NCBI GenBank assembly: GCA_910586035.1 | Contig: CAJUHT010000005.1 | Span: forward strand, 18,818-82,817 | DNA from: an uncultured Christensenella sp. | Lineage (GTDB): Bacteria; Bacillota; Clostridia; Christensenellales; Borkfalkiaceae | Reading direction: 5' to 3' | DNA length: 64,000 nt | In this document: positions 47,152 through 50,240 of the stretch, in pieces | How the letters are laid out: the number at the start of each line of letters is the position of its first letter | Position numbering within the stretch: position 1 is the first letter of the stretch | The notes under the pieces: model-generated | Told to the model about the DNA's origin: nothing | The model's database searches: none | The model's input: only the letters and a program-made list of their open reading frames with translations | Translations under genes and position numbers: made by a program

Positions 47152-47180
47152 TTGACTTTGCGCGCGGCTGTTGATATAAT
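47152..47180 (+). promoter_or_regulatory. Extended -10 promoter of the CXXC-membrane protein / polyferredoxin-thioredoxin pair
   Basis: TTGACT (47152-47157), 17 nt, TG-a-TATAAT (47172-47180). This leaves a 5' UTR of about 85 nt. Confidence 0.6.
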
Positions 47181-47272
47181 AATAACGATAATAAAACGAT
47201 TGCTTTCGATAGAGGGAAACGCGTCCGTCGCGCTTTCCGCCGCGTTAAAGGGCGCGGTCAAAAGAGGAATTT

Positions 47273-48091
47273 ATGAAGGAAAAAACGTGTAAATCCGTGA
47301 GGTTGAGCTACGGAATTATATTCGGCGCGTTTACGTTGGTCGTCGGCGCTCTGTTCATATGGCAGGTGCTCGACGTATACATAACGGGTACCGCCGAAGG
47401 TTTTCAGGGCGCCCACCCATTTTCGAGGGAGAGGGTTTTAGAGGCGCTCTCTAAAATCGATTTGTTTTTCTGGCTGTGGATAGCGGGAATTATAGTCGGC
47501 TTCGTATTGTGGGAAGTGTTTCCCGTAAAGGAAAAGCCGCGTAAAATATGCCCCGACTTGCAGTATGCAAGGCTTATGAAGAGGTTTCCCTCTGCGGCGA
47601 CCGAGGGGTTGGAGGCAGAATACGGCTTGACGGCGCAGACGGGAAAAGTCATTTTTGCGTTAAAGGTCGCCGCCTGGTCGCTTTTCGGTATAGCTTGCGT
47701 GTACGGCATAGTTTATCTGTGCATACCTTCCAACTTTCCCAAGCAAAACGTAACGCACGAAATGCTCGATTTGGCTAAGCATATTTTTCCCTGCGTGTTC
47801 GCTGGGCTGATAGTCGTATGCGGCGCGGCGGTTTACGAAAAGTACGCGGTTAAGAGGATTTTGCCTGCGGTGCAAAAGGTTACAAGGGGTCAAAAGCCCG
47901 TTGAAAGAAGCAAAAACGCCTTTGAGAGGGCGCTTGCGGTATTCGACAATAAGTGGGTTGTATTGGGTATCCGCATTGCTCTCGGCGTTATAGGCGTCGC
48001 GTTTATAATATGGGGCGCGCTTAACGGAAACGCCCGCACGATATTCATAAAGGCAATCAATATCTGTACGGAATGCATAGGGTTGGGTTGA
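47273..48091 (+). CDS. Polytopic membrane protein with C-terminal CXXC tail (possibly CD1871A-type)
   Basis: 272 aa. SD AGAGGA. About six hydrophobic helices. Ends ...FIKAINICTECIGLG, with the C-T-E-C four residues from the C-terminus. The stop is 1 nt before the next ATG. The family name is from memory only. Confidence 0.55.
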   Translation: MKEKTCKSVRLSYGIIFGAFTLVVGALFIWQVLDVYITGTAEGFQGAHPFSRERVLEALSKIDLFFWLWIAGIIVGFVLWEVFPVKEKPRKICPDLQYARLMKRFPSAATEGLEAEYGLTAQTGKVIFALKVAAWSLFGIACVYGIVYLCIPSNFPKQNVTHEMLDLAKHIFPCVFAGLIVVCGAAVYEKYAVKRILPAVQKVTRGQKPVERSKNAFERALAVFDNKWVVLGIRIALGVIGVAFIIWGALNGNARTIFIKAINICTECIGLG

Positions 48092-48092
48092 T

Positions 48093-50240
48093 ATGAAAAA
48101 GTTTTTTGCAAAGGTAAAGGATTGGTTTATAGCCCACAAACCCACTAAAAGGCGTCTTATACAGGTTTACGCCGCGCTGTTGTACAACGCACAGTTAAAG
48201 GGCTTCGTAACGGGCAAAATTTACACAGGCGACACCAAAAAGATGTGTCTGCCCGGTCTTAACTGCTATTCCTGCCCGGGGGCGGTAGGGGCTTGTCCGC
48301 TCGGAGCGTTGCAGGATTCCCTCTCCCAGAGCGGAACGCGCGCGCCCGCGTACATATTCGGCATACTCATTTTGTTCGGACTGTTGCTCGGCAGAATAAT
48401 CTGCGGTTTTCTGTGTCCTTTCGGGCTTATTCAGGAGCTGTTGTACAAGATACGCACGCCAAAGCTCAGAAAGAGCCGTTTTACAAGGATATTATCGTAC
48501 TTTAAGTACGTGTTGCTTGTGATAGTAATTGCAATACCCATAATTTACGCGGGCATACCGTCGTTCTGTAAATACGTCTGTCCCGCGGGCACTATGGAGG
48601 GCGCGCTCGGCTTGCTTGCCAACATAAACAATTCCGACTTCTTCGGAATGCTTGGTTATCTGTTCACCTGGAAGTTCTGCGTGCTCGTAGTAGTGGTGGT
48701 TGCAAGCGTATTCATTTACCGTTTCTTCTGCCGCTTCATCTGCCCGCTCGGCGCGATATATTCGCTGTTTTGCCGTATTTCGCTCTTGGGCGTTAAACTC
48801 GACAAGAATAAGTGTATCGACTGCGGACTGTGCATACAGGGCTGTAAAATGGATATAAAGCACGTAGGCGACCACGAGTGCATACAGTGCGGCGAGTGCA
48901 TAGCAATGTGCCCCGTGCAGGCAATCAGCTGGAAGGGCAGTCAGCTTTTCGTTAAGAACACTGCACCCCTTGCCCAGCCCGCCGTAGCCGAAGGGGAGAA
49001 GGTCGACCTGTTGAATTTGTCCAAAGCCAACGCAAACCTCGCGGTTACTCCCGCCGCCGCGGAAACGGCGGTTGCGGAAGCGCCCGAACAGGAAGTTTTA
49101 GTTAAAGAGGAAACTCAGGATAATGGCGAGGCTGTCGTTTCGGAGCAGGAAGTCGGTGAAAAACCCGCAAAGAAGAGGAGCGGCAGGTTGCAGGCTGTGG
49201 CGGCGGCGTTCAAACGCCCGCGCTTTGTGGTTGAGTTTGTTGCCTGGGTGGTTGCAACAGCGGTACTTTTAACCGCGCTGATAGTATATAACCTGCCCGA
49301 AAAGGAACACAACACCGTGCCCGATTTCACGTTGACGACTTACGGCTCCGCGGCAACGGCAAGCGGTGAAAAATACTCCTCGAAAGAGGGTAGTAAAATT
49401 AAGGTCTACTATTTCTGGCGTACCGACAACGAGGTTAGCGTGCAGGGTATAGACGGGTTGAAAACGTTTGTAGAGCAGTCTTACGGAGAAGTCGACGTAA
49501 TAGCCGTTCATTCCATATATAAGGATACGCGCGACGTACAGGCGTTTATAGACGGCAAGGGCTGGAACGATTACAACATTGTGTTCGCGCAGGACGATAT
49601 GGAAACCAACGCTTATTCGCTGTACGGCGGCGATATATCGGTGCCCAAGCCCATAACGGCGATTATGTCGGAAAACAAGCTGATTAAGTTGCTTGGCAAC
49701 GGCAAGGACGCGGTTGCGCCCTCCGCCGAGGAAATAAAGGAAGGCGTGGCGGCGGCTAAACGGAATACCGTATTTAAAGTAGGCGACTTGTGCCCGCTGT
49801 TTACCTTGGACTGCTACAACGCCGAGGAAGGGGCGAAGTATTCGGTGCTTGAAAGCCGCGGTAAAGTTACGGTGCTTAATTTCTGGTATACCGACTGCGA
49901 CCCCTGCAAAGCCGAGTTGCCCGAGTTTGAAAAGGTTTACGAGGACTATGCGGGGCAAATAAATATGGCTGTAATTCACAGCTATTCGGCGATACCTTCC
50001 AGCGGCGTTCAACACTTCCTCGACAATAATTCGGATAAAAACGGAAAGAAATGGAACAGCTACACGCTGACCTTTGCGCAGGATACCGAGGAGCTCAACA
50101 CGTACGCTATGCTCGGCGGCAAGCGCGCGTATCCTATGACGGTTGTGCTCGATAAAGAGGGCAGAATAACCTTTGTAAAAGCCGGGTCTTGCAGTGAAAA
50201 AGATTTAAGGGAAGCGATAGAAAACGCAGGCAAAAATTAA
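48093..50240 (+). CDS. NapH/MauN-like membrane polyferredoxin (2x[4Fe-4S]) fused via a TM helix to two TlpA/ResA-like thioredoxin folds
   Basis: 715 aa. CYSCPGAVGACPLG plus three C-x3-C-P motifs (CGFLCP, CKYVCP, CRFICP). Ferredoxin motifs CIDCGLCIQGC...CIQCGECIAMCP (nt 48813-48915). A/E/V-rich linker. TM FVVEFVAWVVATAVLLTALIVYNL (49224-49295). The first Trx-like fold lacks CXXC (YYFWRTDNEV). The second has VTVLNFWYTDCDPCKAELPEF (CDPC at nt 49896-49907). Confidence 0.8.
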   Translation: MKKFFAKVKDWFIAHKPTKRRLIQVYAALLYNAQLKGFVTGKIYTGDTKKMCLPGLNCYSCPGAVGACPLGALQDSLSQSGTRAPAYIFGILILFGLLLGRIICGFLCPFGLIQELLYKIRTPKLRKSRFTRILSYFKYVLLVIVIAIPIIYAGIPSFCKYVCPAGTMEGALGLLANINNSDFFGMLGYLFTWKFCVLVVVVVASVFIYRFFCRFICPLGAIYSLFCRISLLGVKLDKNKCIDCGLCIQGCKMDIKHVGDHECIQCGECIAMCPVQAISWKGSQLFVKNTAPLAQPAVAEGEKVDLLNLSKANANLAVTPAAAETAVAEAPEQEVLVKEETQDNGEAVVSEQEVGEKPAKKRSGRLQAVAAAFKRPRFVVEFVAWVVATAVLLTALIVYNLPEKEHNTVPDFTLTTYGSAATASGEKYSSKEGSKIKVYYFWRTDNEVSVQGIDGLKTFVEQSYGEVDVIAVHSIYKDTRDVQAFIDGKGWNDYNIVFAQDDMETNAYSLYGGDISVPKPITAIMSENKLIKLLGNGKDAVAPSAEEIKEGVAAAKRNTVFKVGDLCPLFTLDCYNAEEGAKYSVLESRGKVTVLNFWYTDCDPCKAELPEFEKVYEDYAGQINMAVIHSYSAIPSSGVQHFLDNNSDKNGKKWNSYTLTFAQDTEELNTYAMLGGKRAYPMTVVLDKEGRITFVKAGSCSEKDLREAIENAGKN

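Follow-up and report, generated by a model that had tools for sequence, protein, structure and literature searches.

The window analyzed here, a 64,000-nucleotide stretch of a contig from an uncultured Christensenella sp., contains two adjacent genes, here called gene 1 and gene 2, which encode a membrane protein with a CXXC tail and a NapH-like protein joined to two thioredoxin folds (Table 1). An earlier note on this DNA was right in nearly every detail: all of the features that it described were found where it placed them, and a single T separates the gene 1 stop codon from the gene 2 ATG. The note also stated that one promoter drives both genes. A promoter-like site matching the consensus at 11 of 12 positions is indeed present, but such matches are about as frequent in shuffled sequence (3.6 expected versus 4 found), so we regard it as a good, well-placed consensus match, which does not prove function. 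Beyond gene 2 lie convergent lipoprotein genes. The larger of the two products carries, in addition to its thioredoxin domain, a C-terminal domain of ~680 aa of unknown function, and homologs are encoded no more than 6 kb away in about 40 of the 81 gene 2-family loci. It is a candidate downstream partner of genes 1 and 2, and the smaller lipoprotein is possibly accessory.

Table 1. Features of the gene 1-gene 2 locus; sides of the membrane are as predicted.
Feature	Position	Strand	Remarks
Sigma-70-like promoter, TTGACT-17-TATAAT + TG extension	47152..47180	+	Consensus match only; 93 nt 5′ of gene 1
Gene 1	47273-48091	+	272 aa; C-terminal end CTECIGLG; TGA stop at 48089-48091
Gene 1 N-terminal four-TM domain, residues 1-225	47273..47947	+	Poorly conserved
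Gene 1 CD1871A module, residues 226-272	47948..48091	+	Fifth TM helix and CXXC tail
Gene 2	48093-50240	+	715 aa; ATG at 48093
NapH-like Fer4_5 membrane module, residues 1-234	48093..48794	+	Four helices, N-terminus inside
Loop-A motif C52-x5-C58-x2-C61-x6-C68-P	48246..48299	+	Predicted outer face; invariant; not in E. coli NapH
CX3CP motif 1, C104/C108	48402..48419	+	Cytoplasmic face; common to NapH
CX3CP motif 2 (extra), C159/C163	48567..48584	+	Outer end of TM3; not in E. coli NapH
CX3CP motif 3, C213/C217	48729..48746	+	Cytoplasmic face; common to NapH
Ferredoxin-like domain, two [4Fe-4S] motifs (C241-C251, C263-C273)	48795..48962	+	Cytoplasmic
Linker, low-complexity, A/E/V-rich, K/R-rich stretch at end	48963..49217	+	Cytoplasmic; pLDDT <50
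Gene 2 fifth TM helix, residues 379-397	49218..49289	+	Takes chain outside
Thioredoxin fold 1, degenerate (FWRTDNEV, without CXXC)	49293..49757	+	
Thioredoxin fold 2, ResA/TlpA-like	49758..50237	+	Active site C602-D-P-C605 (49896-49907)
Bidirectional intrinsic terminator hairpin, 12-14 bp, GC-rich, strong	50255..50286		Common to convergent lipoprotein genes
Small lipoprotein, 143 aa	50304..50735	-	Accompanies large lipoprotein in some relatives
956-aa lipoprotein	50765..53635	-	ResA-like thioredoxin domain (CGPC, residues 147-275)

The gene 1 product is polytopic, as the earlier note had claimed, with five TM helices and the CTECIGLG tail. Residues 1-225 matched no family or fold and probably serve as a membrane scaffold. 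Conservation across 79 species is limited to the last TM helix and the tail, where R234, an N251-G252 turn and the sequence KAINIC265TEC268IGLG stand out. The tail CXXC holds the only conserved cysteines of the protein, and the tail, incomplete sequences excepted, is kept in 120 of 120 close homologs. The label that the earlier note offered for this tail, 'CD1871A family CXXC motif', was borne out by NCBIfam NF040920, which matched residues 238-272 at 42.8 bits (cutoff 32). The 35 matching C-terminal residues share the family pattern of a TM helix followed by a KAxxICxECIGxG tail. Canonical members are single-TM peptides of 41-75 aa, and the family is typified by stand-alone peptides of about 38-75 aa whose genes directly precede that of a 4Fe-4S binding protein. 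Gene 1 has this position, but at 272 aa, with an extra four-TM domain in front, it does not have this size. RefSeq already applies the CD1871A-family name to close gene 1 homologs and to a 45-aa protein of Peptoclostridium acidaminophilum. The family is named, yet no function has been described for it, and our literature search found no paper mentioning it.

Gene 2 begins with a membrane module that Pfam assigned to Fer4_5 (PF12801; 64 bits versus a cutoff of 22, in two stretches), along with a match to Fer4; all 43 distant relatives also matched Fer4_5. The module has the same four helices as NapH, and the CX3CP motifs after TM2 and TM4 (C104/C108 and C213/C217), together with both ferredoxin motifs, align with E. 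coli NapH. By NCBIfam thresholds, gene 2 is not a member of the NapH/MauN family, part of the NapH/MauN/RdhC-type label that the earlier note gave to the membrane domain: the NapH/MauN model (TIGR02163) scored 65.9 bits against a cutoff of 213 and the NapH equivalog (NF007013) 50 against 234. Likewise, for NosR/RdhC (PceC), gene 2 gave no FMN_bind Pfam hit and reached 33.5 bits with the NosR model, whose cutoff is 1000. Three CX3CP motifs, an A/E/V linker and a TM helix had been read from the sequence, and all are present. Of the two C-x2-C-x2-C-x3-C-P clusters described, both exist (residues 241-251 and 263-274), but the first ends in CK rather than CP. Across 82 of 82 homologs the N-terminal module keeps its full set of 18 cysteines, which places these features far beyond chance. 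Six of these invariant cysteines have no counterpart in E. coli NapH, and all six fall in predicted outward loops.

Topology was predicted from the positive-inside rule and from homology to NapH. The six extra cysteines occupy loops with few lysines and arginines (2.7 in 47 aa and 2.4 in 36 aa) compared with the N-terminus (6.3 in 21 aa) and loop B (7.5 in 33 aa). The first helix (residues 21-40) is weakly hydrophobic, with a mean Kyte-Doolittle value of 0.6, and AlphaFold2 modeled the membrane module at pLDDT <50. Net charge changes from +4.4 before the last gene 2 TM helix to -1.1 after it, a bias found in 69 of 70 homologs. It agrees with the arrangement proposed earlier and predicts that the ferredoxin domain lies in the cytoplasm and that both thioredoxin folds lie beyond the membrane. 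Counts of K+R in successive gene 1 loops (4.0/2.6/11.2/1.3/8.6/1.7) similarly predict that the CXXC tail lies outside. The earlier note had left the cysteine motifs unassigned to a membrane side. The predictions put six invariant cysteines on the outer face together with the CXXC tail, and this changes the mechanistic picture.

The claim that gene 2 ends in two ResA/TlpA-like folds, with CXXC kept in the second, was confirmed: the folds are paralogs (29% identity, E=2e-17), and AlphaFold2 modeled both at pLDDT 85-97. Pfam matches to Redoxin (57.9 bits versus 26.6) and AhpC-TSA (59.5 versus 26) on fold 2 span residues 562-705. Foldseek matched fold 2 to ResA with a TM-score of 0.85, and its matches comprise ResA, Etrx2, CcmG, StoA and TlpA, all of which are reductases recharged by CcdA/DsbD. 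By its fold, its CDPC and a position outside as judged from charge bias, fold 2 is of the TlpA/ResA/CcmG type; the specific NCBIfam models for ResA, StoA and TlpA all scored below cutoff. The earlier note likened the degenerate and active folds to a substrate-binding plus catalytic tandem. Only one thioredoxin fold is present in the majority of relatives, so the tandem is not essential.

Relatives of gene 2, or of the conserved pair, occur in at least 599 species-level genomes. A gene 1 homolog lies directly upstream of the gene 2 homolog in 80 of 81 loci, the remaining locus ending at a contig edge; in those 80, a gene ending KA..IC.EC[IV]G[LM]G abuts the NapH-like gene start. The joining of NapH-like and thioredoxin parts is no assembly artefact but real and widespread. 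In six loci, the protein is divided between two adjacent, overlapping genes, one for a NapH-like part of ~340 aa and one for a TM-thioredoxin part of ~190-275 aa, and thioredoxin fusions also arose in distant branches of the family (P0310 and P0386). P0386 additionally has a DsbD_N-like match after the thioredoxin, below threshold and without BLASTP confirmation. A sister family consists of unfused NapH-like proteins of ~290 aa in a three-gene operon that encodes, in order, a secreted thioredoxin, a CD1871A peptide and the NapH-like protein. The CD1871A ORF (41-75 aa) is directly upstream in 72 of 75 loci, and in 60 of 67 a same-strand gene at most 400 nt upstream codes for a thioredoxin that is either secreted or a lipoprotein. 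The cultured P. acidaminophilum DSM 3953 provides an example of this operon, for which RefSeq annotates TlpA-family, CD1871A-family and 4Fe-4S binding proteins together. The fused versus split genes, the sister operon and the P. acidaminophilum locus are three independent lines that strengthen the functional link that the earlier note drew between the NapH-like, CXXC-tail and thioredoxin parts. Genes 1 and 2 represent this widespread three-gene system with its parts rearranged: the thioredoxin is joined C-terminally to the NapH-like protein, with an additional TM helix between them, and in gene 1 the CD1871A module follows a four-TM domain.

Neither gene 1 nor gene 2 had a Pfam hit to DsbD/CcdA (PF02683) or a phmmer hit. 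No member of that family was found in the 34 ORFs of the window, as the earlier note had argued, although absence from a window says almost nothing about the genome. CcdA/DsbD was also not found adjacent to relatives in 162 loci; the phmmer search for DsbD-like neighbors, with the E. coli DsbD beta domain as its sole query, had low sensitivity. A canonical CcdA encoded elsewhere could recharge the thioredoxin, with the NapH-like and CD1871A proteins serving a separate purpose, for example the sensing of redox state or the oxidation of quinol, and sharing only their regulation with the thioredoxin. CcdA is present in many Firmicutes, the 64-kb window is uninformative on this point, and a two-component system adjoins the unfused operons in about 35 of 81 loci. 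Nevertheless, the fusion, its independent occurrence in distant branches, the overlapping split genes and the near-universal operon linkage are hard to square with co-regulation alone, and the family-specific cysteines are predicted to lie on the same side as the thioredoxin. We consider this explanation distinctly unlikely.

By analogy, the proposed job of the system, reducing an extracytoplasmic thioredoxin, is that of DsbD/CcdA/ScsB and their clients ResA, StoA, CcmG, TlpA and Etrx1/2. As with DsbD, the thioredoxin of the gene 2 family may be fused to the membrane module or separate. The sequences are unrelated, however. DsbD/CcdA uses two membrane-embedded cysteines, one conserved in each half of the transmembrane domain, and a cytoplasmic thioredoxin as donor. 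In the gene 1/2 system, motifs for two ferredoxin-type clusters are combined with a Cx5Cx2Cx6C loop and three CX3CP motifs, and the CXXC micro-subunit is a protein of its own.

NapH-like modules combine with a wide range of extracytoplasmic redox partners (PMC8238504), and NosR/PceC, like gene 2, couples a Fer4_5 module to an extracytoplasmic redox domain. In those systems the partner is an FMN-binding domain or NapG, whereas in gene 2 it is a thioredoxin fold together with an obligatory CD1871A protein. Genes of the nap and mau types are absent from the window and from the conserved neighbors, and no nos or rdh genes lie nearby. A survey of NapH-like systems describes no thioredoxin-coupled type (PMC8238504). 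The modular use of NapH-like proteins would suit a system in which the thioredoxin serves the NapH-like module, keeping its outer cysteines reduced or helping cofactor assembly, while the output goes to another extracellular acceptor, and eight outer-face cysteines exceed the needs of a simple relay. Acceptors of that kind would be a metal ion, a flavin or a small molecule (compare electron export by NapH/NosR/PceC and metal reduction by CcoG). The neighborhoods argue otherwise. In the 162 loci, the only conserved neighbors are thioredoxin-fold and CD1871A proteins, joined in the unfused family by a two-component regulator, with no conserved FMN-binding domain, ApbE, cytochrome, reductase or other redox partner. 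A maintenance thioredoxin would itself have to be kept reduced, and no electron source for it is apparent, which would make it a dead end. A thioredoxin subordinate to the module thus seems unlikely.

We favor, with a probability of roughly 60%, the reading that the products of genes 1 and 2 form a membrane complex through which cytoplasmic reducing equivalents reach a ResA/TlpA-type thioredoxin on the other side, doing with unrelated parts what DsbD/CcdA does. The co-occurrence of the three parts in hundreds of gut Clostridia suggests that this is probably an uncharacterized route for reducing power independent of DsbD/CcdA, and we found no paper describing it in the searchable literature. 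We infer the direction of electron flow, the cofactors, the Fe-S content and the physiological substrate. A low-potential cytoplasmic donor, probably ferredoxin, would reduce the two [4Fe-4S] clusters; the gene 1-gene 2 operon has no NAD(P)H-binding component. Electrons would then pass to the cytoplasmic-face CX3CP pair common to NapH, NosR and RdhC and cross the four-helix module to a cysteine-rich outer site, formed by the six family-specific cysteines (Cx5Cx2Cx6C in loop A and CX3CP motif 2, after TM3) and the CD1871A CXXC tail. Conserved and predicted to face outward, these cysteines may act as a disulfide relay or as a metal/Fe-S center. We know of no route by which a Sec-inserted protein could acquire an Fe-S cluster on its outer face and, to our knowledge, a pure thiol relay has no obvious way across about 30 Å. 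The outer site would reduce the CDPC disulfide of the tethered fold 2, which in turn would reduce exposed substrates, possibly including the neighboring 956-aa CGPC lipoprotein.

The architecture alone does not fix the direction of flow. Electrons might instead run inward, from DsbA-like thiol oxidation of exported proteins through the cysteine/Fe-S chain to a cytoplasmic acceptor. Such a system would give anaerobes an analogue of DsbB/VKOR that does not depend on quinones, and if these lineages lack quinones, as we assume is probable, an oxidase of the DsbB type would have to pass its electrons elsewhere. Yet the fold and the active sites (CDPC, CGPC, CSPC and CPPC) are those of the ResA/TlpA/CcmG reductase class, without the CPHC and helical insert of DsbA. 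Ferredoxin-type clusters lie near -400 mV and thioredoxin-like disulfides at about -200 to -270 mV, so flow toward the disulfide is favorable and flow from a dithiol to the clusters is thermodynamically uphill. Thiol oxidation is therefore a very improbable role.

The outward-reducing complex may have an even more specific identity. The chemistry is perhaps that of ferredoxin:thioredoxin reductase (FTR) and HdrB/HdrD-type heterodisulfide reductases, in which one-electron Fe-S carriers drive two-electron disulfide reduction and a thioredoxin-like protein is reduced in turn. Those enzymes are soluble or peripheral, work within one compartment and carry CPC...CHC motifs or a CCG domain; these motifs are absent from genes 1 and 2, and the comparison is an analogy from general knowledge. 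Tentatively, and at less than even odds, we propose a ferredoxin-driven 'membrane FTR', a new mechanistic class of transmembrane disulfide reductase in which inner one-electron Fe-S carriers would act, by way of a NapH-like module and an eight-cysteine outer site that includes the CD1871A micro-subunit, on a surface thioredoxin undergoing two-electron reduction.

In the searchable literature, we found no characterized route for reducing extracytoplasmic bacterial thioredoxin folds outside the DsbD/CcdA/ScsB family, which depends on a cytoplasmic thioredoxin and a membrane cysteine pair. If our reading is correct, a second, unrelated conduit would exist on a NapH-like iron-sulfur module, and it would show how ferredoxin-rich strict anaerobes protect or reduce their surface proteins. 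This reading lends itself to direct tests, since fused, split and unfused forms exist in nature and P. acidaminophilum is a host in culture. CD1871A, as well as hundreds of gut-Clostridia proteins annotated merely as '4Fe-4S binding protein', would gain a testable function. There would also be a handle on the CX3CP motifs of NapH, NosR and RdhC, for which it is not known whether they form disulfides or an Fe-S center (PMC5928378). Should the 'membrane FTR' exist, these motifs would perform thiol-disulfide or cluster-to-disulfide chemistry, and many gut Clostridia, along with some Bacilli, would use the system in place of DsbD/CcdA or beside it.

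Genes 1 and 2, in which the TGA of the first is followed by a single T and then the ATG of the second, look like one bicistronic unit because a candidate promoter lies upstream of the pair and a terminator downstream. The promoter is plausible from its sequence; promoter-like matches in this region were no commoner than in shuffled sequence. The terminator of gene 2 is common to both of the convergent lipoprotein genes that follow it. All of the sequence features that the earlier note had named for the two genes were present, confirming that observation.

Features of the gene 1-gene 2 region and of its surroundings (nucleotide positions in the window)
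Feature	Position	Strand	Description
MoxR AAA ATPase, DUF58, BatA and VWA gene string	9048-19542	+	Followed by two large ORFs without Pfam match
Three very large predicted surface proteins	19856-35983	+	1213, 1489 and 2515 aa
Opp-type peptide ABC transporter operon	37436-45457	+	
SDH_alpha family gene	45773-47053	-	PF03313, 200 bits; divergent from gene 1
Promoter-like site of SDH_alpha gene	47129-47100	-	12/12 consensus; back to back with gene 1 promoter
Candidate promoter of genes 1 and 2	47152-47180		Near-consensus TTGACT-17-TATAAT with TG extension
Gene 1	47273-48091	+	272 aa; C-terminus ...AINICTECIGLG
Gene 2	48093-50240	+	715 aa; ATG start
Bidirectional terminator	50255-50286		GC-rich, 12-14 bp
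Lipoprotein	50304-50735	-	143 aa; no family match; convergent with gene 2
Lipoprotein	50765-53635	-	956 aa; ResA-like thioredoxin domain (CGPC, residues 147-275), then ~680 aa without assigned function

Pfam matches in gene 2 comprised Fer4_5 (twice), Fer4, and Redoxin/AhpC-TSA at residues 562-705, and the protein scored far under the NCBIfam cutoffs for NapH/MauN, NapH, NosR, ResA, StoA and TlpA. Hydrophobic helices were found at residues 88-106, 140-158, 195-213 and 379-397, and a weakly hydrophobic helix at residues 21-40 aligns with TM1 of E. coli NapH, the preceding RRxxQ included. Across 82 homologs, the number of lysines plus arginines was 6.3 in the 21-aa N-terminus and 2.7, 7.5 and 2.4, respectively, in the successive inter-helix loops A (residues 41-87, 47 aa), B (107-139, 33 aa) and C (159-194, 36 aa). 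This pattern agrees with the published topology of NapH, in which four TM helices leave both termini inside; the ferredoxin domain (residues 235-290) would accordingly be inside, and loops A and C would face outward. The last TM helix, which follows the A/E/V-rich linker, has a net charge of +4.4 in the 15 residues before it and -1.1 in the 15 residues after it in 69 of 70 homologs, and both thioredoxin folds are therefore predicted to lie outside. NapF, a partner of NapH, is cytoplasmic. The opposite arrangement, in which loop A is cytoplasmic and loop B external, was rejected because it would leave 7.5 K/R in an outside loop of 33 aa, and also because it is at odds with NapH data cited in PMC5928378, according to which interaction with NapF requires the first CX3CP motif.

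All 18 cysteines in the N-terminal 290 residues of gene 2 were invariant in 82 of 82 sequences. Twelve have counterparts in NapH (two CX3CP and two ferredoxin motifs). Of the six without a counterpart, four lie in loop A as C52-x5-C58-x2-C61-x6-C68 and two (C159/C163) make up a third CX3CP where loop C begins; both loops are predicted to face outward. Adding the two cysteines of the gene 1 CXXC tail would give eight invariant outer-face cysteines beside the tethered CDPC thioredoxin. Assigning the cysteine motifs to membrane sides is the main anatomical refinement of the earlier note, which had not placed them. AlphaFold2 modeled the thioredoxin folds with a pLDDT of 85-97; in the full-length prediction (63 sequences), the NapH-like module had a pLDDT below 50, which makes the model unusable for the spatial placing of cysteines. 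The two thioredoxin folds are paralogs (29% identity, E=2e-17), and FWRTDNEV in fold 1 aligned with FWYTDCDPC in fold 2. Foldseek matched the thioredoxin fold model with ResA (TM-score 0.85), Etrx2, CcmG, StoA and TlpA. A sequence search of the PDB found no match to the membrane module of gene 2.

An arginine pair near the N-terminus of gene 2 is a separate observation. Residues 17-25 (48141-48167) contain an invariant motif that reads P-T-K-R-R-L-I-Q in this protein and L-R-R-L-C-Q in E. coli NapH (L083:6716-7579). It is pure speculation that this motif and the weakly hydrophobic first helix might resemble a twin-arginine signal anchor and, equally so, that such an anchor could bear on the assembly of an outer-face cofactor.

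Gene 1 had no match in Pfam. An NCBIfam scan identified its residues 238-272 as a "CD1871A family CXXC motif-containing protein" (42.8 bits vs. a cutoff of 32), bearing out the label that the earlier note had suggested for this tail. Its AlphaFold2 model consists of five long helices (pLDDT 82.9) and a low-confidence tail; Foldseek of the model against the PDB returned nothing at E<=0.001, and neither model nor search gave any sign of resemblance of the N-terminal domain to DsbB, VKOR or CcdA. Equivalence of this domain to the four-TM N-terminal extension found in some NapH-like relatives such as P0263 was rejected, as the two had no similarity. The K+R counts by loop (4.0, 2.6, 11.2, 1.3, 8.6 and 1.7) indicate an N-in, tail-out topology. 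Across 79 species, conservation was found only in the last TM helix and tail (R234, G248, N251, K260, A261, I264, C265, E267, C268, I269, G270, L271 and G272), and no cysteine besides those of the tail CXXC was conserved.

A homology search with the 47-aa tail of gene 1 retrieved only three proteins, all of them fragments or mis-called starts of gene-1 homologs; canonical CD1871A members were reached instead via tblastn against PLSDB and a metagenome scan. In the small CD1871A peptides of the unfused family, a K/R-rich N-terminus is combined with a single TM helix, an RGE motif and the tail, features that suggest a signal anchor whose tail faces outward. No natural fusion of a CD1871A tail with a NapH-like protein occurred among 392 proteins examined. 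At one related locus (L128), an apparently single ORF of 193 aa joins a thioredoxin domain (CSPC) to a CD1871A TM helix and tail and stops ~7 nt before the NapH-like gene (7074-7937). We treated this fusion, on a contig with ~1.2x coverage, as a probable sequencing error or frameshift; a genuine fusion would call the tail-out topology into question.

A protein search with gene 2 detected 4,382 relatives, the best 120 of which were all Fer4_5-plus-Redoxin fusions from Clostridia MAGs (e.g., "Candidatus Coproplasma"), either ~715 aa long with two thioredoxin folds or ~560 aa long with one. When one genome per species was scanned, at least 599 genomes had relatives, among them Christensenellales, Borkfalkiaceae, Oscillospiraceae, Acholeplasmatales and Anaeroplasmataceae. 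At 80 of 81 loci, the start of the NapH-like gene is abutted or overlapped by a homolog of gene 1 whose tail reads KA..IC.EC[IV]G[LM]G; the single other locus ends at a contig edge. The fusion of NapH-like module and thioredoxin is real, and a natural split form also occurs: at six loci (L036, L052, L058, L060, L061 and L069), a NapH-like protein of ~340 aa and a TM-anchored thioredoxin of ~190-275 aa are encoded by separate overlapping genes.

At E<=1e-3, an exhaustive HMMER search with residues 1-300 of gene 2 yielded 7,452 cluster representatives, of which 435 reached E<=1e-30. Representatives below ~50% identity were mostly ~270-310 aa long and free of a thioredoxin domain; such unfused relatives retain both the third CX3CP and, in loop A, the motif C.PGLNCYSCPGA...CP. 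The loop-A motif was present in 110 of 123 full-length representatives and a fused thioredoxin in 47. The tblastn search of PLSDB provided one annotated example, on an 809-kb megaplasmid of Peptoclostridium acidaminophilum DSM 3953, where the genes for a 45-aa "CD1871A family CXXC motif-containing protein" and a 280-aa "4Fe-4S binding protein" overlap and a TlpA-family lipoprotein (CPPC) is encoded nearby. The metagenome scan, seeded by the unfused family, added 80 further loci, at which the gene order is thioredoxin, CD1871A, NapH-like: a CD1871A ORF of 41-75 aa lies directly upstream of the NapH-like gene in 72/75, and a same-strand thioredoxin gene ends no more than 400 nt upstream in 60/67. 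A signal peptide or lipobox was found in all 12 of the thioredoxins read from these operons, whose active sites are CSPC, CGPC, CTAC, CPPC, CTPC and CDPC. In ~35 of 81 unfused loci (L086-L165), genes for a histidine kinase and an OmpR-type response regulator lie ~1.5-2.2 kb upstream on the opposite strand, which suggests control by envelope signals; no such pair was found near genes 1 and 2 in the window.

No CcdA/DsbD-like gene was detected among the conserved neighbors of relatives, and in a phmmer search of low sensitivity, the E. coli DsbD beta domain had no match in the 1.76 Mb of DNA that flanks them. We consider it quite unlikely that a distant CcdA recharges the thioredoxin and that the linkage is merely regulatory, as repeated covalent fusion is hard to reconcile with such a linkage. 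A distant relative from the representatives search, P0386 (668 aa), comprises a NapH-like module, a TM helix, a thioredoxin (CGPC) and a C-terminal domain with a YQSCxxxxC motif. This last domain scored 23 bits against DsbD_N (cutoff 25) and gave no BLASTP match to E. coli DsbD alpha; given the sub-threshold score and the empty BLASTP, we took the likeness as a hint only. If real, it would mimic DsbD with the beta domain replaced.

Over a wide range of Firmicutes, fusion, fission and operon structure join three parts: a NapH-like protein that carries six additional cysteines, a thioredoxin of the extracytoplasmic ResA/TlpA type, and a CD1871A module made up of a TM helix and a CXXC tail. Charge patterns predict that the family-specific cysteines and the CD1871A tail are on the thioredoxin side of the membrane. 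We infer a route in which electrons would enter through the cytoplasmic 2x[4Fe-4S] domain, pass to the two inner CX3CP motifs, and traverse the four-helix module to an outer cysteine site, completed by the CD1871A tail, which would in turn reduce the thioredoxin. A reductive direction is consistent with the ResA/TlpA-class fold and active sites, and with the much lower potential of ferredoxin-type clusters compared with thioredoxin disulfides. Reverse, oxidative flow is highly improbable, since fold class and thermodynamics favor the opposite direction. That the thioredoxin serves to maintain the NapH-like module, whose true output would be something else, is unlikely given that another conserved redox partner is absent. 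For the reductive route, we consider ferredoxin a more likely electron donor than quinol because quinol would sit uphill of the thioredoxin disulfide. The outer site and the CX3CP motifs may relay disulfides or may coordinate metal or Fe-S; a cluster at the outer face would raise an assembly problem and a pure thiol relay a distance problem. According to PMC5928378, the choice between these two roles was never settled for the motifs of NapH, NosR and RdhC, and NosR held at most 8 Fe.

Homologs of the 956-aa thioredoxin-domain lipoprotein occur within 6 kb of the gene pair in ~40 of 81 loci (species), and the system may have this lipoprotein as a client or as its second output. An SDH_alpha neighbor is found in 16 of the 81 loci as well; the gene in the window had no NCBIfam match. 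The SDH_alpha family includes cysteine desulfidases (e.g., CdsB), and a tie of this gene to thiol or cysteine metabolism is speculative. Elsewhere in the window, the last Opp ATPase (43610-45457, 615 aa) carries a C-terminal low-complexity tail of ~270 aa, rich in K/S/T/A/E, which is unusual for an OppF-like protein. The MoxR/DUF58/BatA/VWA string resembles the Bacteroides "Bat" aerotolerance operon, and the 2515-aa surface protein combines subtilase S8 and PA domains with Fn3-like, Big_2 and many BspA-type leucine-rich repeats.

Among known systems, DsbD/CcdA with thioredoxin-fold clients is functionally nearest to genes 1 and 2 but shares no homology with them. The NapH/NosR/RdhC group is structurally nearest, with gene 2 being a Fer4_5 member below the NapH/MauN and NosR thresholds; unlike that group, it comes with an obligatory micro-subunit and additional cysteines and has neither an FMN domain nor Nap partners. 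FTR and Hdr offer a chemical analogy only. An eLife survey of NapH-like systems (PMC8238504) describes FMN-coupled but not thioredoxin-coupled types, and a 2026 review of disulfide maintenance (PMC13628048) contains neither "ferredoxin" nor "4Fe-4S" and refers to iron-sulphur only for glutaredoxins. Our literature search found "CD1871A" in no paper and "CD1871" only in unrelated C. difficile gene lists; for NapH-like/PF12801 proteins with thioredoxin and for DsbD/CcdA-independent routes, it gave no description of this system. RefSeq already has names for its parts (CD1871A family protein, 4Fe-4S binding protein and redoxin-domain protein), for which we found no functional description. The earlier note had proposed an Fe-S route feeding an extracellular thioredoxin without CcdA/DsbD; this reading is partly supported, comparative evidence considerably strengthening its core and refining it with the outer-face cysteines and a three-component system. 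We rate genes 1 and 2 as a NapH-like electron-transfer module with a probable thioredoxin output and with putative electron flow and cofactors, and there is a real chance that they represent a mechanistically new class of transmembrane disulfide reductase.
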